From Okeania sp. (lineage in GTDB: Bacteria > Cyanobacteriota > Cyanobacteriia > Cyanobacteriales > Microcoleaceae): 10,530 nt of DNA. This document shows positions 3,196-10,530 of the stretch, piece after piece. A program made the position numbers and the translations under genes. Each line of letters starts with the position of its first letter. Positions within the stretch are counted from its first letter, which is position 1. The stretch is from NCBI RefSeq assembly GCF_035285525.1, contig NZ_JAYKGW010000203.1:1-10530 (forward strand), in the 5' to 3' direction. The notes beneath the pieces were generated by a model that saw nothing but the letters and a program-made list of their open reading frames with translations, did not search any database and was not told the origin of the DNA.

Positions 3196-3494
3196 CCAAC
3201 GCTCCTTGTGGTGATGATGAAATACAGGTTTCTTATGATCAAAAGTCTGAAAATTATCATAGTTACAAAGTAGACAATGAAGCTTGCTTCCTTAACACTC
3301 AGGGTTATAATGTTAATTTTGTTTTTAACGTTATGGTCAGTAATAAACAATTTATTGCGCCAGACCATGAAAGTCAAAAAAAAGTTGAGAATTGCCAAAC
3401 AACAGATTTGAATATATTCGGTCTGTTTGGTAAAGATACTATTAGAACAACTATCAATAAACCTAATAATTATATCACAAACTACACGAGATAA
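3153..3494 (+). CDS. ORF of uncertain status overlapping the end of the previous gene. It could be a separate small protein or a -1-frame continuation of 2011-3195.
   Basis: This frame is open from 3102. The translation looks like a soluble protein (CGDDEIQVSYDQKSENYHSYKVDNEACFLNTQGYNVNF...). There is no obvious RBS. A 113-codon open frame is unusual by chance in DNA this AT-rich, but the opposite strand is also open here. Confidence 0.3.
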   Translation: MVVCNFLFRKCNRITNAPCGDDEIQVSYDQKSENYHSYKVDNEACFLNTQGYNVNFVFNVMVSNKQFIAPDHESQKKVENCQTTDLNIFGLFGKDTIRTTINKPNNYITNYTR

Positions 3495-3710
3495 AATCAT
3501 GTTTTAAACCCTGGTAAAATAACTATAAAAATTGTTGAAAAAAAATGGAAAAATATATGTTCTTACTTGGGGAGAAAGTACAGGAATTTTGCCGACATTG
3601 AATGAGTAGCTGTCTGGAAGTTTATGGGGAGAAGTCGATAAAAAATTAATAAAAAAAAGTCAACGAAATTTTATCTAATAAAATCTACTCTCTACCAGAG
3701 TAAAAATATT

Positions 3711-3740
3711 TTGCCAAAGCCGTAAATTTGGCAATATAAT
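3711..3740 (+). promoter_or_regulatory. Candidate sigma70-type promoter (TTGCCA-N18-TATAAT) with an embedded 8-bp inverted repeat
   Basis: TTGCCA at 3711-3716 and TATAAT at 3735-3740, about 130 nt upstream of ATG 3873. TTGCCAAA (3711-3718) and TTTGGCAA (3727-3734) form a perfect inverted repeat spanning the spacer. Confidence 0.35.
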
Positions 3741-3872
3741 ACTAAAAATCTAACCAACTAGGTACAAATTTGAATTGGTAAAATTATTGTACTGTGCACA
3801 TCTAGCTCACGATATTTCTACCTCGTAACAACGGGGAGTGCTGTAACAATCTGATTAAGGAGAATTAAAACT

Positions 3873-5393
3873 ATGAAAAGAAAACATAAATTATTTATCT
3901 TAAGTCTACTTTTAGTCTTACTTCTGAAAATTGGTTTCTCATGGCAAATAGCGATCGCTAAACCCACACCCACCAACCAACAACCAGAAAAAATTAGCCA
4001 AACAGAAGCCACTCCCACTGAAACCGAAACCGAAACCGAAACTAAAGTAGATACTGAAGCAGAAGACTCCTACGAAACCCTGCTCGAAGCAGATTTTCTG
4101 TATCAGCAAGGAGAAAGAGAAGCAGCAGAAGAACTTTACCGAAAAGTCAAAACACCCTTTGCATCTCATCAAAACACCATGTTTTCAGACCCCATAAACA
4201 ACACCGAAAATTTACCAACCGAGATTCAAACCGAGTGGGAAGAAGCAAAAAATGCTGCTGACAAAAATGATAATCTGGAGATGTTGCAAGAGTTTGTAGC
4301 ACAACATCCAGAATTTGTTCCTGGTCATTTATTCTTAGCTAAAACATTACAAAAGAACGAAAAGAAAAAAGAAGCTCTGCAAGTTCTAGAAAAAGCCTCC
4401 AGTATTTTTCCCGACTCAGTAGAAATAGTTGAAGCTCATGTCAAAGCACTGAGAAAAGAAAAAGACTATTTAGAAGCATCCATCGCAGCTCGTCAATTTG
4501 TGTTAGTTAATCCAGAGCATCCAGAAGCAGCAAGGTTTCTAGAAATTGCTGACGAGAACTTTGAGAAATTCCAGAAGAAAATTAAGGGGCAAATGGTAGG
4601 CAAAGGTATCTTGGGAACAGCTATCCGAGTTGGTGGTTGCGCTGTACTCGGTAATTGTAATGTATTGGGAACTGTTCTGGGAGAAGGCATTAAAATGGGT
4701 AGTTTGCTGCTCCAAGGAGAATCAGGTTTAGGCAGTCGAGTAGCAGAAGCATATAAGAAACAACTCTCACTGGTGGAAGATGAGGAAGTAGTCGAATATG
4801 TGAGTAAAATTGGTAATTCTATTGCGGAGTTAATGGGTAGAGATGATTTTGAATACGAATTTTATGTAGTGAAAGATGATTCCCTCAATGCTTTTGCTTT
4901 ACCTGGGGGTAAAGTATTTGTGAATACTGGATCGATTCTTAATACTAATTCTGAAGCAGAGTTAGCAGGTTTACTTACCCATGAAGTTGCTCATGCAGTT
5001 CTTTCCCACGGTTTTCAAAGAGTTGTGACTACTAACTTGTACGATAGTGCAGGGGGTGTTGTTCGTGATGCGTTAAAAACTAACATTCCTATTAGCAGTA
5101 TTGCTACAAGTTTGATTAGTTTACGTTACAGTCGGAGCAATGAGCGTCAAGCGGATATTGTTGGTACTCGTGTTTTAGCTACTGCTGGTTATGCTGCTGA
5201 TGGTTTAAGAAATTTTATGGCAACTCTGGATGAAAAAAAAGGTGGTAAACGTTCTTTGGGTTTTCTTTCCAGTCACCCCCAGTCAGATGATCGGGTTGAC
5301 TATCTGGAACAATTAATTGAATATAATGGTTACAATCGTTATGCTTTTGAAGGAGTGGAGAAACATAGAGGGATTCAGGAAAAGTTAATGTAA
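3873..5393 (+). CDS. M48-family zinc metallopeptidase (506 aa) with a signal peptide and an N-terminal helical, TPR-like region
   Basis: AAGGAG at 3858-3863 precedes the ATG. Signal-like MKRKHKLFILSLLLVLLLKIGFSWQIAIA. Family motifs present: NAFALPGGKVFVNTG, HEVAH (4980-4994) and the downstream SRSNERQADIVGTRVLATAGY. Confidence 0.9.
   Translation: MKRKHKLFILSLLLVLLLKIGFSWQIAIAKPTPTNQQPEKISQTEATPTETETETETKVDTEAEDSYETLLEADFLYQQGEREAAEELYRKVKTPFASHQNTMFSDPINNTENLPTEIQTEWEEAKNAADKNDNLEMLQEFVAQHPEFVPGHLFLAKTLQKNEKKKEALQVLEKASSIFPDSVEIVEAHVKALRKEKDYLEASIAARQFVLVNPEHPEAARFLEIADENFEKFQKKIKGQMVGKGILGTAIRVGGCAVLGNCNVLGTVLGEGIKMGSLLLQGESGLGSRVAEAYKKQLSLVEDEEVVEYVSKIGNSIAELMGRDDFEYEFYVVKDDSLNAFALPGGKVFVNTGSILNTNSEAELAGLLTHEVAHAVLSHGFQRVVTTNLYDSAGGVVRDALKTNIPISSIATSLISLRYSRSNERQADIVGTRVLATAGYAADGLRNFMATLDEKKGGKRSLGFLSSHPQSDDRVDYLEQLIEYNGYNRYAFEGVEKHRGIQEKLM
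4020..4043 (+). repeat. Hexanucleotide repeat (GAAACC)x3 plus GAAACT inside the M48 gene, encoding (ET)4
   Basis: gaaaccgaaaccgaaaccgaaact, read directly; in frame. Confidence 0.85.
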
Positions 5394-5409
5394 AAAATGG
5401 AGCGATCTA

Positions 5410-5553
5410 ATATCATGTCGGGATAAGAGCCCAATCAAAAAAACTTGCTCCTCCTTTTCCTCTCTTGGGAAGGGTTAGGGGTGGGTTAACTTGTAATTCA
5501 TTCCTCCTGACTCTTTCCCTCTTTATCTATAACTATTTAATCGGACATGATAT
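5410..5553. repeat. Segment of ~145 bp bounded by inverted repeats (possible MITE or decayed element) just downstream of the M48 gene
   Basis: ATATCATGTC (5410-5419) and GACATGATAT (5544-5553) are perfect 10-bp inverted repeats, with partial extension (..GGGAT / ATCGGA..). The interior is rich in polypyrimidine and polypurine tracts. Confidence 0.4.
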
Positions 5554-5608
5554 AACTCCACAATTTCCATTCTTTAGTGTAAAAGGGCGATCGGTAGCAA
5601 TGGAACAG

Positions 5609-5646
5609 ACTTACGCAGACTCTAGATATAGTGCCTTTGTGTAAGT
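5609..5646 (+). repeat. Short hairpin repeat, family copy R4
   Basis: ACTTACGCAG (5609-5618) pairs with TTGTGTAAGT (5637-5646) through two G.U positions. It is followed by AGTCCTG (5645-5651) ... CAGGACT (5673-5679). Confidence 0.75.
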
Positions 5647-5702
5647 CCTGAAACAATGAAAATTTATGCACACAGGACTAAAGCCATGAACGTTATTAGT
5701 AG

Positions 5703-5729
5703 GGTGCGTTAGCCTCAGCATAACGCACC
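5703..5729. other. Perfect 9-bp stem with a 9-nt loop
   Basis: GGTGCGTTA-gcctcagca-TAACGCACC, read directly. Confidence 0.7.
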
Positions 5730-5733
5730 GATA

Positions 5734-5763
5734 CGCTATATATAGCGCCTTTCCGTAAGTCCT
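5734..5763 (+). repeat. Partial hairpin-family copy R5 (3' arm only) preceded by a perfect 14-bp palindrome
   Basis: CGCTATATATAGCG (5734-5747) then CCTTTCCGTAAGTCCT. This parallels tagatatagtgCCTTTGTGTAAGTCCT at 5624-5649. Confidence 0.5.
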
Positions 5764-5907
5764 ATCACAGTTAAAGCAATGTGCGCACTTAATATTTACA
5801 AATCACAGGAACTGTCCAATAACTAAAAGTCTTATTTTATTAAGCAATTTATTCCTTCTGTTCCCTGCGCACAGCGCTATATTATTTGGGAAATCAATCA
5901 AATAATT

Positions 5908-7905
5908 ATGTCACGTTACAAAGTTGGTGGAAACTTAGCAGCAAATCATCCTACTTATGTAGTCAGAAAACAAGATACAGAATTATATGAAAAACTCTTA
6001 GCTGGAGAATATTGTTATATATTCAATGCTCGTCAAATGGGTAAATCTAGTTTGCGAGTGAGCGTGATGAAAAAATTACGTTCCCAAGGTTGTCAATGTG
6101 CAGTAATAGATATGAGTAGATTAGGTAATTCTTCTGCGCCAGAAAAATATTGGTATCGTCAATTTATGAAAAAGATATTTGGGGAATTGAACGATTTTTC
6201 GGTTCAAGAAAAGTCTTGGTGTAATGGATTTATCAAAGAATTATTTAGTGAATTTAATTTAAACTATAGTATCAATTCTCAAGAATGGATAGAAAATCAT
6301 CAAAGTTGGATAAGTACCCAAATTTTAGTTCAATTTATTGAAGAAATTTTATTCATTAATTTTCCAGCACCGCAAAAAATATATATTTTTCTCGATGAAA
6401 TTGATGCCCTGGTAAATTTACCTTTTAAGAATCAGTTTTTTGCCTTTATTCGCTCTTGTTATAATTTCCGAGCCGAAGCTGAAAATTCTGATTATCATCG
6501 GTTAGTTTTTGGTTTTTTTGGAGTAGTAACCCCAGAAGATTTAATTAAAGATGGCAAACATACTCCTTTTAATATTGGTCATGGTATTGAATTAACAGAG
6601 TTAACTTTTGAAGAGGGTAAAAAAAGTTTAATGGAAGGCTTAAAAGAAGTAGTTGATGAACCAGAAACTGTTTTAGAGAAAGTTTTTGATTGGAGTGGCG
6701 GTCAACCTTTTTTAACTCAGAAAATTTGTCAAATTATTCTTGATTATACTGATACTACTCAACCAGATATTGATAGTTTGGTAAAAGAACATATTTTGAC
6801 AGATTGGGAAGATAAAGATCGGCCTACTCATTTAAAATATATTCGCCATTATTTACTCAGTGAAACTTTACTTGCGCCTCAGTTACTGAGGCTATATAAA
6901 AAAATTTTATTGCCAGGAGAAATTAAAGTTAATGATAGTTCTATACAAATGGGATTGAGGCGATCGGGTATAGTTATTAAAAAACGAGATAAGTTGGTTG
7001 TTTTTAATAAAATATATCAGACAATTTTTAATCTAGATTGGGTAGAAGAGCAGTTAGCAAATTTAAGAAATCAAGGTCAAAAAATCTGGCCTCCTAATTG
7101 GAAACAAGTTGCTAGTTTAGTAATTTTCCTGGGAATTAGTTGGCAGTTATCGGTGCAGAAGTTTTTGTTAGATAGGCGGGTGTTTTTACAAGCTATTTAT
7201 CGTCAATATACTCGTCAAAATTCAACAAATAATATTCCCCCTGTGTTGTTAGTGCAAATAGATGATGAATCAATTATTAAAGCAGAAATTGCCCAACCTA
7301 ATCCTATGAGAAGGGATTATTTAGCTAGTTTAGTTAAACGAGTTTCTGAGTTAGAAACCAAGGTCATTGGAATTAATTATTTATTAGATCGCTCTCATAA
7401 AAGAAGGGATGGAGGAGTAGGCGATCGCCTCTTAGCAAAAGCTATTCCAACAGCAGTAAAAAAACAACAATTGATTGTTCTGGTTAACCGCAGCGGCTAT
7501 ACTATAATTCCTGAAATTGCTAATTTGAATTTGATTTTACAAGGAAATGTGAAAGTGATAAGTAATGGAAGATATTTAGCACTCCCCAATCTTGAATCTT
7601 CCGATGTAAAAGATTTTACTTTTTCCTCTATGTTGTTATTAGCTTATCACTTAAATTATGAGAAAAAGTCTGATAGTTTACCTCAAGTAAACTTACAAAA
7701 TCAGGTTAATTTTTCAGTTAATTATCAAAAATATTTTTCTGGAGTTTATCTTTGGAAATCCCTCACTTTTTTTTCCTATCGGTTGAAACAAAGGTGGCTG
7801 CTTCCAATTGTAGACTTTTCTATTAGTTATGACCAAGTATATGACTGTATTCATGCTTGGCGACTTTTGGAATCTCATAATTCTTTAGCTTCCAAAAAAA
7901 ACTAG
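5908..7905 (+). CDS. AAA-like (STAND-type) P-loop NTPase, one TM helix, and the N-terminal part of a CHASE2 domain. The reading frame is cut short by a frameshift in an A8 run.
   Basis: The N-terminus YKVGGNLAANHPTYVVRKQDTELYEKLLAGEYCYIFNARQMGKSSLRV matches the cyanobacterial 'AAA-like domain' family as I remember it. Walker A is GKS (6040-6048) and Walker B is IYIFLDEID (6379-6405). TM helix VASLVIFLGISWQL (~7109-7150). CHASE2-type start PPVLLVQIDDESI...RRDYLASLVKRVSELETKVIGINYLLDR. Confidence 0.85.
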   Translation: MSRYKVGGNLAANHPTYVVRKQDTELYEKLLAGEYCYIFNARQMGKSSLRVSVMKKLRSQGCQCAVIDMSRLGNSSAPEKYWYRQFMKKIFGELNDFSVQEKSWCNGFIKELFSEFNLNYSINSQEWIENHQSWISTQILVQFIEEILFINFPAPQKIYIFLDEIDALVNLPFKNQFFAFIRSCYNFRAEAENSDYHRLVFGFFGVVTPEDLIKDGKHTPFNIGHGIELTELTFEEGKKSLMEGLKEVVDEPETVLEKVFDWSGGQPFLTQKICQIILDYTDTTQPDIDSLVKEHILTDWEDKDRPTHLKYIRHYLLSETLLAPQLLRLYKKILLPGEIKVNDSSIQMGLRRSGIVIKKRDKLVVFNKIYQTIFNLDWVEEQLANLRNQGQKIWPPNWKQVASLVIFLGISWQLSVQKFLLDRRVFLQAIYRQYTRQNSTNNIPPVLLVQIDDESIIKAEIAQPNPMRRDYLASLVKRVSELETKVIGINYLLDRSHKRRDGGVGDRLLAKAIPTAVKKQQLIVLVNRSGYTIIPEIANLNLILQGNVKVISNGRYLALPNLESSDVKDFTFSSMLLLAYHLNYEKKSDSLPQVNLQNQVNFSVNYQKYFSGVYLWKSLTFFSYRLKQRWLLPIVDFSISYDQVYDCIHAWRLLESHNSLASKKN

Positions 7906-8023
7906 AAAATGTGAAGTAACTCAAATAATTGAAGATCAAGTTAAACAACAGATAGTAATAATAGTTCCTGGTGGATATGACAATGCAGGGCTAAAATACG
8001 GGGATGATAATTATACTCCACTG

Positions 8024-8371
8024 ATGGCTTTTAGTTATTGGAATAATGACAAAATTTTAACAGGAGGTGAAATTCATGCCTATATGCTACATCATCTTCT
8101 AATTAATAGAATAGTGATTCCTATACCTGATTTCTGGATGATTTGGGTGGGGGCTTTTTTGGGTCAAGGTGTGATTATTTTATTGCATAAATATCCAGGA
8201 AAGCGTGGTGAGTGGGTAGGGGTTTTTGTAGTTACTAATTTTGTTTATTTAATAGTTAGTTTGCAGGTTTATATTTCTGGGGTGTTTGTGTTACCTATTG
8301 TGTTGCCTTCTGTTACCTTTTGGATTTATATTCTACTGCATTATCGGATAAAAAATGATTTCCCAACTTAA
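8024..8371 (+). CDS. C-terminal part of the same CHASE2 protein in the +1 frame. This frame is open from 7889; ATG 8024 is only the first Met.
   Basis: Frame-2 translation from 7889 reads ..KKTRKCEVTQIIEDQVKQQIVIIVPGGYDNAGLKYGDDNYTPLMAFSYWNNDKILTGGEIHAYMLHHLLINRIVIPIPDFW. Three hydrophobic helices follow. This is the typical end of a CHASE2 domain. Confidence 0.8.
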   Translation: MAFSYWNNDKILTGGEIHAYMLHHLLINRIVIPIPDFWMIWVGAFLGQGVIILLHKYPGKRGEWVGVFVVTNFVYLIVSLQVYISGVFVLPIVLPSVTFWIYILLHYRIKNDFPT

Positions 8372-8441
8372 CTGTGGTATAAATCAAGTAAAATTTTCTA
8401 TCCCTAAAATATGTTTTGTTGAAAATTAAAAGGTGAAAAAT

Positions 8442-9077
8442 ATGCGTTATAAATTTTATTCATTTATATCTTTTTTTCTTCTATCAGTTTCTGGCTTACT
8501 ATGGGTGAATTATTATTCATTAATTAGTCAAGTAAATGCTCAAGTTATTGCTCAAAAGTCGCCTTCTAGCCAATACATTTTGGATCGACTCCAAGAAATA
8601 ATTTTTAATGCTAAAGAAGAACAATCCGAACCTCCAGAAACCTCTGATAAAAATACTTCTCGTGGTGATGATTTTTGTTTAATTGCACCTTGGTTATACA
8701 AATTAGAAAATTCCTCAGAGCAAATATTTGTAGAAGTTTTCCGAGAGCAACCTATCTTTATTTGGCAGAAAGATGCAGGGGCAATTTTCATACAAAATCC
8801 TGAAACTCAGGAGACAATTTGGGCAGAAGTTGTGGATTATGGAGTCAGAAAAATGGTTTATTCTGGTCAAACTTTAGAGAAGGGAAAAATTTATCATCTT
8901 TTCTTACACGAAGGCGATACAACTAGCTCTCCTTTTCCCTTTAAAATTATTAGTGGAAATCGCCGAAAAACTATTGAAGCAGAGTTGCAAAAATTGGAGA
9001 AAAAAGCTGGTGCTGCTTCTGCTGAAGAGATGGCTTTATTACGAGCTGATTATTTTCTGAAGCAAGGTTTATTATGA
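8442..9077 (+). CDS. Exported DUF928-like protein (about 211 aa from ATG 8442; the ORF track starts at GTG 8433)
   Basis: AAGGTG (8429-8434) lies 7 nt before ATG 8442. Signal peptide MRYKFYSFISFFLLSVSGLLWVNYYSLISQVNA-Q. The pattern ..SRGDDFCLIAPW...PIFIWQ...YSGQTLEKGKIYHL...LRADYFLKQGL fits my recollection of the DUF928 consensus (R-G..C..L.P, P-hF-W, L..Gk.Y, YA..G). Not verified by HMM. Confidence 0.55.
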   Translation: MRYKFYSFISFFLLSVSGLLWVNYYSLISQVNAQVIAQKSPSSQYILDRLQEIIFNAKEEQSEPPETSDKNTSRGDDFCLIAPWLYKLENSSEQIFVEVFREQPIFIWQKDAGAIFIQNPETQETIWAEVVDYGVRKMVYSGQTLEKGKIYHLFLHEGDTTSSPFPFKIISGNRRKTIEAELQKLEKKAGAASAEEMALLRADYFLKQGLL

Positions 9078-9169
9078 GATGCTTTTAATAAGATGTTATC
9101 AGTAAAAGAACCCTCTGATGAACTGAATGAAACTTTGAAAAAAATTAAGAAAGAAGAGTTTTGCCCCAC

Positions 9170-9200
9170 CAAGTAACACAAGCATCTTACTTGTTAATTT
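9170..9200 (+). terminator. Weak candidate intrinsic terminator
   Basis: CAAGTAA (9170-9176), a 10-nt loop, TTACTTG (9187-9193), then TTAATTT. The stem is short and AT-rich. Confidence 0.2.
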
Positions 9201-9291
9201 AAAGTAAAACAGACAAAATTCCTGTTAGTCTAACCCACATTCCGCAGGTCAACTTCCAAAATTAAAAATAGTGTGAAAAAAGGAGACTAAA

Positions 9292-9504
9292 ATGCAGCTA
9301 ACTAAAAATTTTCTGTTTTCAATCAGAAAACTAGGTTTTTCTGTAACTACAATTACTGGATTAGTTATTAATTTAACCACTGAAATAGCATTAGCAGGGA
9401 CTGCATGGCAAAAGCGAGAAATTACCAGGATTAACATATATATTTGCCATGCAGTAGATAATTTTTTTTGCTATTCAGACTTACGCAGGCAAACCCAGAA
9501 ATGA
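9292..9504 (+). CDS. Small 70-aa ORF with a hydrophobic N-terminus and a Cys-containing tail; unknown function
   Basis: This is the strongest RBS in the window: AGGAG at 9281-9285, 6 nt before the ATG. Translation is MQLTKNFLFSIRKLGFSVTTITGLVINLTTEIALAG...INIYICHAVDNFFCYSD... The last ~17 codons run into the dispersed repeat at 9454-9522, so the true 3' end is uncertain. Confidence 0.4.
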   Translation: MQLTKNFLFSIRKLGFSVTTITGLVINLTTEIALAGTAWQKREITRINIYICHAVDNFFCYSDLRRQTQK

Positions 9505-9522
9505 GTTTTCCGTGTAAGTCCT
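9454..9522 (+). repeat. Hairpin-family copy R6 with its upstream TAGATAA-T8 segment. Paralogous to 194-254.
   Basis: gtagataattttttttg..ACTTACGCAGGCAAACCCagaaatgagTTTTCCGTGTAAGTCCT aligns with caatagataatttttttttgcACTTACGCAGGCAAATCCagaaaccagATTTATTTGTGTAAGT. Confidence 0.8.
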
Positions 9523-9571
9523 GAGTTGGAAATCAAGTCAAACTTAACAATTCTATCAGGAGGAATTTACG

Positions 9572-10319
9572 ATGAAATATCCAACTTTTTTCAGTTACTT
9601 AACTCTGAGTTCTATCCTAACTTTAACTCCGGTTAAGTTAGGATTAGCTCAAACTCAAAATTCACTGTTAAACTATCAAAAGATTGTACAAGATCAAATC
9701 AGTCACAACTTAGGAAATCAGATAAATAGACTTTATCAACAAGGAGAGAAACAATTAAAAGCAGGTCAATTGCAGGGAGCTTTAAATAGTTATCAGCAGG
9801 CTTTAGCTATTGCTAAAAAAATGGGTAATTCCCAGTTTTTACAAGGGTTAATTTTACAAAGGATCGGAATAGTTTATGGATACCTAAGCGAGTACAAAAA
9901 AGCATTACAAAACTATGAACAAGCTGGGAAATTTTTTCAAGCAGAAGGGAAAACTAAGGATGTTGCATGGACGCTTATATACATTGGTAACGTTTTCAGA
10001 GATTTACAGAATTTTGAAGAAGCAGAAAAATTTTATCAGCAAGCTTTAGAAATTAGTAAAAAAATTGGCAGTCGAGATGTGGAAGGAGAAAGTATCAATG
10101 GTTTAGGCAGCCTCTACAATATTCAGGAGAACTAGGATTTAGCACTGAAATATTATCAACAAGCTTTGCAGCTTAACCAAGAAGAAGGCGATCGCCAAGG
10201 TGAAGGAGTAGTTATTAACAACATTGGAGTCGTTTATCGACAACAAAGTAAATACCAACAGGCGTTAGATGCTTACAAAGCAGCTTTGAAGATTGACAGA
10301 GAAATTAGTAATCGCCTTA
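9572..10319 (+). pseudogene. Exported tetratricopeptide-repeat protein, disrupted by an in-frame TAG (10133-10135) and truncated at its 3' end by an IS insertion at 10320
   Basis: AGGAGG (9560-9565) precedes the ATG. Signal-like MKYPTFFSYLTLSSILTLTPVKLGLA-QT. About 40-aa TPR units follow (..ALNSYQQALAIAKKMG.., ..ALQNYEQAGKFFQAEG.., ..AEKFYQQALEISKKIG.., ..ALKYYQQALQLNQEEGDRQGEG.., ..ALDAYKAALKIDREISNR). ORFs 9572-10135 and 10166-10348 are in the same frame. Confidence 0.85.
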
Positions 10320-10385
10320 GGCTTTGTTGCACAAAAGGTGACGTTTAGGCTATAAATAACATCAGGATCATACGAATCAGTAGAT

Positions 10386-10530
10386 ATGAGTAAGTCCAAG
10401 TCCAAGTCCAAGTCCAAGTCCAAGTCCAAGTCTAAGCCTAAGCCTCAATACAAGATCAAGAATTGGTCTGAGTATAATGCATCCTTGAAGCAACGAGGCA
10501 GCCTAACATTTTGGCTTAATCAAGAGGTAA
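10386..10530 (+). CDS. IS5-family DDE transposase, N-terminal fragment (partial at the window edge)
   Basis: MSKSKSKSKSKSKSKSKPKPQYKIKNWSEYNASLKQRGSLTFWLNQEV. The NW.EYN..L.QRGSLTFW motif is the characteristic N-terminal signature of IS5/IS903-type transposases. Confidence 0.75.
   Translation, partial: MSKSKSKSKSKSKSKSKPKPQYKIKNWSEYNASLKQRGSLTFWLNQEV
10392..10445 (+). repeat. Hexanucleotide microsatellite (AAGTCC)x6 plus AAGTCT and AAGCCT x2, encoding (KS)7(KP)2
   Basis: Read directly. In frame at the 5' end of the transposase ORF. Confidence 0.9.

Follow-up and report, generated by a model that had tools for sequence, protein, structure and literature searches.

Introduction

Frameshift pseudogenes made by slippage at homopolymers belong to bacterial genomes with much non-coding and mobile DNA, such as those of Trichodesmium and its relatives. 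The genome of Trichodesmium erythraeum, related to the organism considered here, is only ~60% coding and has numerous IS elements along with pseudogenes of transposases (PMC4143802). A run of A's that disrupts a frame need not be fatal. In the endosymbionts Buchnera and Blochmannia, in Thermus dnaX, in Shigella mxiE and in IS elements, poly(A) frameshifts are rescued by transcriptional slippage. The run length involved is typically at least 9, with 8 sufficing in some organisms, and Baranov et al. considered an 8-nt run productive in some bacteria, Nostoc IS elements included (PMC1088944). When RNA polymerase slips on A or T runs it mainly generates 1-nt insertions, and homopolymer deletions are rare (PMC5574713). 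At the level of DNA, phase-variable contingency genes of Neisseria, Haemophilus and Campylobacter have mononucleotide tracts whose length sets the frame of an ORF. Such tracts are usually longer than the one dealt with here, are near the 5′ end and vary in length between and within strains, 8 nt being at the short end of the range for those composed of A or T.

The run at issue, of 8 A's, is in a stretch of 10,530 nucleotides from Okeania sp. (‘the window’), which is the entire length of a short contig from a draft assembly. The affected gene encodes an AAA_35 NTPase domain followed by a CHASE2 domain.

Reading frames at the A run

The features of the gene are as follows.

5908..8371, + strand: disrupted AAA_35-CHASE2 gene, 820 aa after deletion of one A (AAA_35, residues 8-374; CHASE2, residues 410-751)
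5908..7905, + strand: upstream ORF of 665 aa ending ...SLASKKN*, comprising the AAA_35 NTPase and roughly two thirds of CHASE2, together with a weakly hydrophobic segment
7894..7901, + strand: A8 homopolymer AAAAAAAA with the additional base, followed by C and then TAG
7903..7905, + strand: premature TAG arising from the frameshift
7889..8371, + strand: +1 frame continuation of 160 codons, covering the end of CHASE2, profile positions 184-250, plus three hydrophobic helices
8024..8371, + strand: tail ORF of 115 aa, MAFSYW..., from an internal conserved Met, the C-terminal part of the broken gene

The first-pass annotation of this DNA had placed eight A's at 7894-7901, with frame 1 closed directly afterward by the TAG at 7903-7905, and every coordinate that it gave is confirmed. 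It also had frame 2 open from 7889 with CHASE2 sequence and three terminal helices to 8371, and translation, Pfam and hydrophobicity all bear this out: the +1 frame has a TAG at 7886-7888, then no stop codon from 7889 until the TAA at 8369-8371, and its translation reads LPKKTRKCEVTQIIEDQVKQQIVIIVPGGYDNAGLKYGDDNYTPL...GGEIHAYMLHHLL.... The continuous frame of ~820 aa that had been anticipated on removal of one A proves to be exactly 820 aa, with the CHASE2 match rejoined. The residues across the break in this full-length product are ...SLASKKTRKCEV..., the junction peptide being SLASKKTRKCEVTQIIEDQVK. The A run is at codon 662 of 820, i.e. 81% into the gene.

AAA_35 (PF14516) is matched at residues 8-374 with a score of 66.1 bits, the cut-off being 27 (E 3e-18 with ORF1). 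The match to the CHASE2 profile (PF05226, gathering cut-off 26.3 bits) is severed between positions 142 and 184 of its 257. ORF1 alone matches positions 10-142 with 43.7 bits and the repaired protein gives a single match to positions 10-250 with 63.0 bits, both exceeding the cut-off; the downstream frame alone matches positions 184-250 with E 0.0026 and 17.8 bits, which is under the curated cut-off. The earlier interpretation had been staked on CHASE2 homology of frame 2 in an HMM search, and it is upheld, with the proviso that the tail by itself is a sub-cut-off match. All three strongly hydrophobic segments (repaired residues 741-760, 769-787 and 790-812) are 3′ of the break. Since an open frame of 160 codons has a chance of occurrence of ~3e-6 at this base composition, and since the tail shares ~80% identity with the C-terminal ends of orthologues that are intact and has the CHASE2 match just described, the +1 frame from 7889 is the true continuation of the AAA_35-CHASE2 gene and not a random ORF.

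In the NCBI annotation 5908..7905 is MEB3342842.1, an ‘AAA-like domain-containing protein’, and 8024..8371 is MEB3342843.1, a hypothetical protein, with no pseudogene flag having been set on the gene by the pipeline. The main value of what is reported here is for annotation: the 665-aa and 115-aa entries are fragments of a single disrupted gene, and the two genes that come after it on the contig are also disrupted.

Orthologues at the A run and the case for recoding

Three orthologues (L002, L003 and L004; ~80% identical) are all in frame at the A run. Comparison of orthologues for A7, A8 or A9 had been advocated in the first-pass annotation, and L002, the closest orthologue with identical flanking codons, has TCC-AAAAAAA-CT-AGA in frame, i.e. 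the window sequence minus one A. L003 and L004 have AAAAAAAA-T-AGA, also in frame, where the window has AAAAAAAA-CT-AGA. The spacing from TCC to AGA is 9 nt in the orthologues, whether as A7-CT or A8-T, versus 10 nt in the window (A8-CT), and the A7 versus A8 difference among the orthologues is a C-to-A substitution, not a change in length. The frame break is thus lineage-specific, the extra base being in the window alone. The remaining indels that distinguish the window from the orthologues are of 3, 3, 6, 39 and 3 nt, leaving the A run as the sole frame-breaking difference. Over its full length the repaired protein is 80-81% identical to the intact orthologues P0001 and P0003, both of which are continuous across the site, and nearly all the full-length paralogues listed are single ORFs of 770-833 aa. 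In the predicted structure of P0003 the AAA_35 part is confident, with a fold nearest to Orc1/Cdc6-type AAA+ proteins; the CHASE2 part has pLDDT <50 (residues 522-676) and is uninformative on the position of the break. There is a 15-nt gap beside the run, and the notion that this gap and the extra base reflect one 14-nt deletion is unlikely, as the shorter form, without SNDLV, is also present in the relatives P0122 and P0127, neither of which has the frameshift.

A DNA pattern search for further copies of the window allele, covering A7 to A9, yielded none in the metagenome collection and, in the genome collection, only the A7 orthologue L002. At the protein level, no relative was confirmed in a scan of the genome collection, and a scan of the metagenome collection gave only paralogues, of at most 64% identity.

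Could the gene nevertheless be one in which transcriptional slippage, or +1 ribosomal frameshifting, regularly yields both a 665-aa and an 820-aa protein? That slippage on runs of 8 A's can be productive (Baranov et al.) is in favor of such programmed recoding, and the run is indeed retained by all three orthologues, but in frame in each, so that the out-of-frame arrangement is not conserved. Rescue would require a 1-nt deletion or a 2-nt insertion. For the ribosomal variant a +1 shift is needed, whereas A_AAA_AAC is a −1 motif, and slippage to the −1 frame would lead to the dead-end ...LENVK* rather than to the CHASE2 frame; further, the AAC codon that precedes the stop is unable to re-pair in the +1 frame. 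Neither is there sign of a stimulator: the sequence before the A run has no Shine-Dalgarno-like element, and folding near the run revealed no stable RNA structure (the downstream 89 nt have z +1.33, worse than shuffles, and upstream z is +0.83). We regard programmed recoding at this site as very improbable. An Rfam scan of the window gave no match.

Damage in neighbouring genes and in relatives

The AAA_35-CHASE2 gene does not suffer alone, as the features 3′ of it illustrate.

8433..9176, + strand: partner gene conserved downstream, for a secreted protein of ~247 aa, interrupted by an in-frame TGA (9075-9077) where Trp is conserved
9572..10348, + strand: TPR-repeat gene, interrupted by an in-frame TAG (10133-10135) where a repeat has its conserved Tyr, and cut at ~10349 by an inserted element
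10386..10530, + strand: IS5-family transposase gene, which begins here and runs off the end of the contig (NCBIfam NF033579 positions 1-24, E 9e-5)

In the partner gene homology runs for 32 codons past the TGA to the TAA at 9174-9176, and the Trp at the site of the TGA is conserved even in a homologue with just 35% identity. A code in which TGA specifies Trp was entertained and rejected, as the AAA_35-CHASE2 gene uses TGG for Trp and has no in-frame TGA; we know of no cyanobacterium with such a code. On the 5′ side, an HTH-AAA_35 partner is directly upstream in L002, L004 and L086 and is absent in the window, where homology begins only at 5880. The nonsense codons in both downstream genes, the IS5 insertion and the missing upstream partner point to relaxed selection around the gene.

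Independent lesions, of other types, are present in relatives also. L004 has TAG in place of TAT 30 codons downstream of the A-run site, and frameshifts are present in L093 and in the paralogue P0054, where no homopolymer is involved. L095 and L096 are missing ~150 aa, with a change of frame, and L089 holds a C-terminal relic accompanied by AAA_35 fragments. That the breaks in the window, L004 and P0054 are within ~50 codons of each other was considered and set aside as evidence because of search bias: a full-length query scores late truncations highest and a tail query favors tail-only ORFs.

One might envisage a functional split, with a truncated NTPase-sensor and a separate 115-aa membrane tail, initiated at ATG 8024, cooperating as two subunits. 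The frameshift in the window and the nonsense codon in L004 both leave an ORF from the same conserved Met (MAF...), and stand-alone tail ORFs are present in several relatives, the search with the tail as query being biased towards them. The breaks, however, differ in kind and position (homopolymer insertion, nonsense, 150-aa deletion, relic without the N-terminal part), and because they do so they have the signature of decay and not that of a conserved two-gene design. Moreover, the break runs through the CHASE2 profile, and on the + strand there is neither a promoter-like site nor a Shine-Dalgarno sequence before ATG 8024. Very little credence can be given to cooperation of the two pieces.

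Is the extra base real?

One surplus base in an 8-nt homopolymer is a classic fault of several sequencing chemistries, with error rates at homopolymers differing greatly between Illumina and long-read data, and were the genome really A7 the gene would be intact with no biological event to explain. The short contig is from a draft assembly, and the tail is perfectly intact with a dN/dS like that of the rest of the gene, as an error would have it. Against this, the Logan assembly of SRR19514071, a separate k-mer assembly of a run for which a literature search located no publication, is identical to window positions 5792-10349 (4558 bp), A8 included, though it may share reads with the NCBI assembly; its contig ends exactly at 10349. 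In addition, none of the 12 other A or T runs of at least 7 inside ORFs of the window breaks a frame, among them an A8 (5233-5240) inside a Peptidase_M48 match and a T8 (7767-7774), and the five runs within the AAA_35-CHASE2 gene have no indel relative to the orthologues. As these other runs leave their ORFs unbroken, the assembly has no general homopolymer problem. Nonsense substitutions in the two adjacent genes are not homopolymer artefacts, and establish damage to the locus independently. An error of sequencing or assembly is accordingly unlikely, and the extra base is probably present in the DNA rather than being an artefact of reads.

If the base is in the DNA, it might be there reversibly, with slipped-strand mispairing switching between an ‘on’ A7 state, giving the membrane-anchored full-length protein, and an A8 state that is off or truncated. 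A tract of this sort is hypermutable in principle, the orthologues have kept it as Lys-Lys codons, and the family, with its CHAT, TPR, MazE/PIN and XisH/XisI neighbors, resembles a fast-evolving and possibly conflict-related set of genes. On the other hand the tract is far from the 5′ end, the three orthologues are all in frame with their A7/A8 difference being substitutional, the Logan contig spans the site with no variant allele in that one assembly, and the lesions that break the neighboring genes are irreversible. Phase variation of this kind has, in our estimation, only a very slight chance of being correct. Were tract length shown to vary in reads or RNA, it would be a rare instance of cyanobacterial homopolymer switching; nothing found points there.

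More generally, the A run could be considered a functional slippage site, as a DNA-level A7/A8 switch or at the RNA level, that chooses between a full-length membrane-anchored form and one lacking the helices. We think this most unlikely. Were it true, the independent truncations just before the helices in relatives would be testimony to selection having repeatedly favored release of the NTPase-sensor from its membrane tail, and not to decay; the truncations meant are the L004 nonsense codon and the P0054 frameshift, shared by three samples, together with the tail ORFs that stand alone.

Ordinary decay as the favored explanation

Given that the neighboring genes are broken too, the frameshift is most likely ordinary gene decay and not a regulatory switch. 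Replication slippage from A7 to A8 probably made this AAA_35-CHASE2 gene a recent pseudogene, or at best a crippled copy. The first-pass annotation had listed a fixed pseudogene, phase variation, slippage in transcription or translation and a homopolymer sequencing error without ranking them; the first is now favored, with the qualification ‘recent’, the error is less likely and the other two are without support.

The sequence of events envisaged is simple. In this Okeania lineage the A run would have gained one base by replication slippage, and a ribosome translating the resulting mRNA would read ...SKKN and halt at the TAG. Its product of 665 aa (an estimated ~77 kDa, versus ~94 kDa for 820 aa) would still have the AAA_35 NTPase and the initial two thirds of CHASE2, but not the final conserved segment of that domain, nor any of the three strongly hydrophobic helices at the C-terminus; it is probably non-functional. 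The gene would be one member of a large paralogue family with fast turnover, and the decay would extend to the entire locus. As a small minority of the transcripts from an A8 tract can have the frame corrected, full-length protein may still be made to some extent.

The frameshift seems to be recent. There are no further stop codons in the tail, and dN/dS is 0.36-0.49 3′ of the break versus 0.51-0.57 in the upstream part of CHASE2, i.e. not raised in the tail, both of which fit with a recent event. An intact 160-codon tail with unrelaxed dN/dS is equally compatible with sequencing error or a tail that is still expressed.

On a broader front, the case is a small data point for fast turnover of the expanded AAA_35-CHASE2 family and its partners in Okeania and Trichodesmium, with many relics.

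Comparison with known systems

As with other CHASE2 sensors, the repaired protein has a near-complete match to the domain and ends in three hydrophobic helices. Unlike in those sensors, CHASE2 is here at the C-terminus, the helices are not followed by an output domain, and the part of cytoplasmic partner falls to the N-terminal AAA_35 NTPase. Proteins built in this way are common in Okeania, Trichodesmium and Dapis, and to our knowledge there is no experimental study of them.

With the contingency genes of Neisseria, Haemophilus and Campylobacter the locus has in common that the length of a mononucleotide tract sets the frame of an ORF. Their tracts are usually longer and 5′-proximal, and are variable in length, whereas the tract in the window has none of these features.

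The resemblance to poly(A) frameshifts rescued by transcriptional slippage is that of an A run within a coding region at which an mRNA with more or fewer A's would have its two frames rejoined, and with Thermus dnaX it extends to position, about seven eighths of the way into the gene (PMC1088944). The rescued tracts, though, are usually of at least 9, keep their out-of-frame arrangement from one homologue or strain to another, and mostly involve insertions; here there are 8, the orthologues are in frame and a deletion is needed.

With the homopolymer-slippage pseudogenes of Trichodesmium and its relatives there is no essential difference. There, as here, a one-base change in an A or T run is followed soon after by a stop codon with the remainder still recognizable in another frame, neighboring genes are damaged and an IS element is nearby. 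What is particular to this case is that the AAA_35-CHASE2 family is uncharacterized and that its pieces have been called ordinary proteins by NCBI.

A reading frame broken within CHASE2

The AAA_35-CHASE2 gene (5908-8371, forward strand) is interrupted at a run of eight A residues, and the pertinent features are as follows.

5908-7905, forward strand: upstream ORF of 665 aa, C-terminus ...SLASKKN*
7886-7888: TAG closing the +1 frame, after which 160 codons are open
7894-7901: the A run, AAAAAAAA, followed by C
7903-7905: TAG ending the upstream ORF
8369-8371: TAA ending the open +1 frame

An open frame of this length has a chance probability of ~3e-6 at the composition of the window (34% G+C), and its translation runs LPKKTRKCEVTQIIEDQVKQQIVIIVPGGYDNAGLKYGDDNYTPL...GGEIHAYMLHHLL... 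The first-pass annotation, which had described the A8, the TAG at 7903-7905, an open +1 frame with CHASE2 sequence and a protein of about 820 aa were the run A7, was right throughout: removal of one A yields an 820-aa protein, and the downstream frame by itself matches Pfam CHASE2 profile positions 184-250 (E 0.0026).

The upstream ORF has AAA_35 at residues 8-374 and matches CHASE2 profile positions 10-142. Repair of the frame lifts the CHASE2 score from 43.7 to 63.0 bits and leaves a single unbroken match, which covers 10-250 of the 257 profile positions. From the N-terminus the protein consists of an AAA_35 P-loop NTPase, a weakly hydrophobic segment, the CHASE2 module and three helices at the C-terminus, beyond which no output domain follows; the three hydrophobic segments (741-760, 769-787 and 790-812) all lie past the break. 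In the predicted fold of an orthologue the AAA_35 part is confident and is nearest to Orc1/Cdc6-type AAA+ proteins, and since the CHASE2 part is of low confidence, the structural effect of truncation is gauged from the Pfam profile only. The AAA_35-CHASE2 architecture recurs in about 40 of the best 120 matches, mostly at 770-833 aa; Okeania, Trichodesmium and Dapis commonly have it, and no experimental work on it is known to us.

Origin and age of the extra base

Three close orthologues with DNA available, at 80-81% amino-acid identity, allow the site to be compared.

Sequence at the site of the A run in the window and in the loci of its orthologues
L002, encoding P0003 (833 aa): TCC AAA AAA ACT AGA AAA TGT (S K K T R K C)
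L003, encoding P0001 (1206 aa), and L004, encoding P0004: [GT]CC AAA AAA AAT AGA AAA TGT (K K N R K C)
Window: TCC AAAAAAAA CT AGA AAA TGT

Addition of one A to L002 gives exactly the window sequence at the site, and a change from A7 to A8 is the most parsimonious event. Insertion of a C into an A8-T allele was considered as an origin and rejected as not being a slippage-type change. Along the whole gene the other indels between window and orthologues (3, 3, 6, 39 and 3 nt) are all multiples of three. The gap at the A run is 14 nt, a 15-nt in-frame difference combined with one extra base; because the relatives P0122 and P0127 share the short form that is without the five residues SNDLV, this form is a polymorphism that predates the frameshift and has no connection with it.

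Relative to the orthologues dN/dS is 0.36-0.49 for the tail, 0.51-0.57 for the upstream part of CHASE2 and 0.33-0.36 for AAA_35. The tail has acquired zero further stops, which points to a frameshift that is recent on the scale of a dS of ~0.2-0.35. That it is a real mutation which created a pseudogene is, in our estimation, probable.

Neighboring genes and the probable reality of the mutation

The features on either side of the gene are as follows; the two genes downstream of it are damaged too.

3873-5393: M48-TPR peptidase gene
8433-9176: conserved partner gene, secreted protein of ~247 aa, in-frame TGA at 9075-9077
9572-10348: TPR_12-repeat gene, in which TAG (10133-10135) replaces, in frame, the conserved Tyr of one repeat
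10350-10530: start of an IS5-family transposase (ATG at 10386), MSKSKSK...QYKIKNWSEYNASLKQRGSLTFWLNQEV, matching NF033579 positions 1-24 (E 9e-5)

Counterparts of the partner gene lie downstream of the orthologues (252 aa in L004, 256 aa in L002) and in L093 a homologue at 35% identity (E 2e-28) even follows a CHAT-CHASE2 gene that is itself only distantly homologous. The TGA stands where L004 and L093 have Trp, and past it a further 32 codons keep both frame and homology, conserved C-terminal Cys included, up to the TAA at 9174-9176. Similarly the TPR sequence stays in frame past its TAG to ~10345, homologues, e.g. on L002, being of ~1100 aa. Directly upstream of two orthologues and one paralogue is a 434-aa HTH-AAA_35 gene with a weak N-terminal GerE/HTH match (L002 6648-7952; L004 4121-5425; L086 1601-2905), and in L003 it is fused with the AAA_35-CHASE2 gene into the one 1206-aa ORF. 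It is missing upstream in the window (5394-5907 compared), where DNA homology starts only at 5880 and the M48-TPR gene is found instead. With four independent lesions within ~4.6 kb, the simplest reading is that the locus as a whole is under real relaxed selection.

A homopolymer sequencing error could in principle have made the A8, and we regard this as unlikely. Lesions in the adjacent genes cannot be homopolymer artefacts; a separate k-mer assembly (Logan, run SRR19514071) has a contig of 4558 bp that matches window 5792-10349 without a difference, also in the A8, its exact end being where the window switches to IS5 sequence after ~10349; and of 19 other A/T runs of at least 7, the 12 that sit in ORFs all keep frame. 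Among these, the A8 at 5233-5240 within the Peptidase_M48 match and the T8 at 7767-7774 within the AAA_35-CHASE2 gene leave their frames unbroken, and the five A/T runs within the latter gene have no indel relative to the orthologues. Indirect as this evidence is, it favors real mutation.

Several repeats were seen in passing. A 42-nt unit is tandemly repeated at 4-213 (about five copies, 74-100% identity), ending in a T9 run (201-209); the ~680 bp of 3196-3872 have no convincing ORF and contain three A8 runs (3376, 3538 and 3651); and a hexamer repeat, (AAGTCC)n at 10392-10433, encodes (KS)n in the transposase start. A 68-nt direct repeat, 87% identical between 1724-1791 and 9530-9597, takes in the ribosome-binding site of the TPR gene together with its first codons (MKY...FFS); no long ORF lies behind the 1724-1791 copy, and this copy may be another gene-start relic.

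Could the break be bypassed?

RNA polymerase slippage at A/T runs does occur, and 8 A's can suffice for it in some bacteria (PMC1088944). Programmed recoding at the run is, however, most improbable. The out-of-frame arrangement is not conserved in the orthologues, and the required +1 shift corresponds to a 1-nt deletion or 2-nt insertion in RNA, whereas genome-wide measurements found homopolymer slippage to give mostly 1-nt insertions, with deletions rare (PMC5574713). For the ribosome, A_AAA_AAC is a −1 motif, a −1 slip ends at LENVK*, and re-pairing in +1 is not possible for the AAC ahead of the stop. The run is not preceded by any Shine-Dalgarno-like sequence, and neither the 89 nt downstream (z +1.33) nor the 54 nt upstream (z +0.83) folds better than shuffled sequence. 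A small incidental fraction of corrected transcripts is possible; nothing suggests that it would be programmed.

Phase variation, with the length of the run switching the gene on and off, is similarly hard to credit, the tract being short and at codon 662 of 820, with no frame-changing length differences among the orthologues. A functional split into two products we also rate as very unlikely. The practical result is an annotation correction: NCBI lists a protein that matches the 665-aa product without a difference, MEB3342842.1 / WP_324238272.1 ('AAA-like domain-containing protein [Okeania sp.]'), on a contig of exactly 10530 bp, all of which the window covers, and the 115-aa ORF at 8024-8371 has a separate NCBI entry as hypothetical protein MEB3342843.1.

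Relics in the wider family

P0004 itself is broken 30 codons past the A run, where TAT has become TAG (L004 7616-7621, GGDN*TPPMAF), a nonsense mutation that is independent of the lesion in the window and leaves one ORF of 715 aa and another of 112 aa. The paralogue P0054 (L086, L087 and L088; 4970-5040) has a non-homopolymer frameshift at ...TPYS|NQKQMSG, yielding a 679-aa ORF and a second one of 116-131 aa; five contigs from three samples carry the identical sequence, so that the split copy must persist in nature. In L089, from a TARA metagenome, an orphan C-terminal relic 84% identical to P0003 is without its N-terminal part, and AAA_35 fragments, in two frames, adjoin an intact paralogue (relics at 4929-5570 and 7023-7477); the C-terminal relic adjoins MazE/PIN genes. 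CHAT-CHASE2 genes have a simple frameshift in L093 (4812-4831) and, in two samples, a ~150-aa deletion with frame change (L095, ~1511; L096, ~2244).

Breaks seem to cluster toward the C-terminus, largely because of the search design. Since their kinds and positions differ, these lesions are what decay looks like. The event in the window is most likely a homopolymer frameshift of an ordinary kind, recent and specific to its lineage, in a gene cluster on its way out. The related Trichodesmium genome is known to be ~40% non-coding and to hold many IS elements as well as transposase pseudogenes (PMC4143802).
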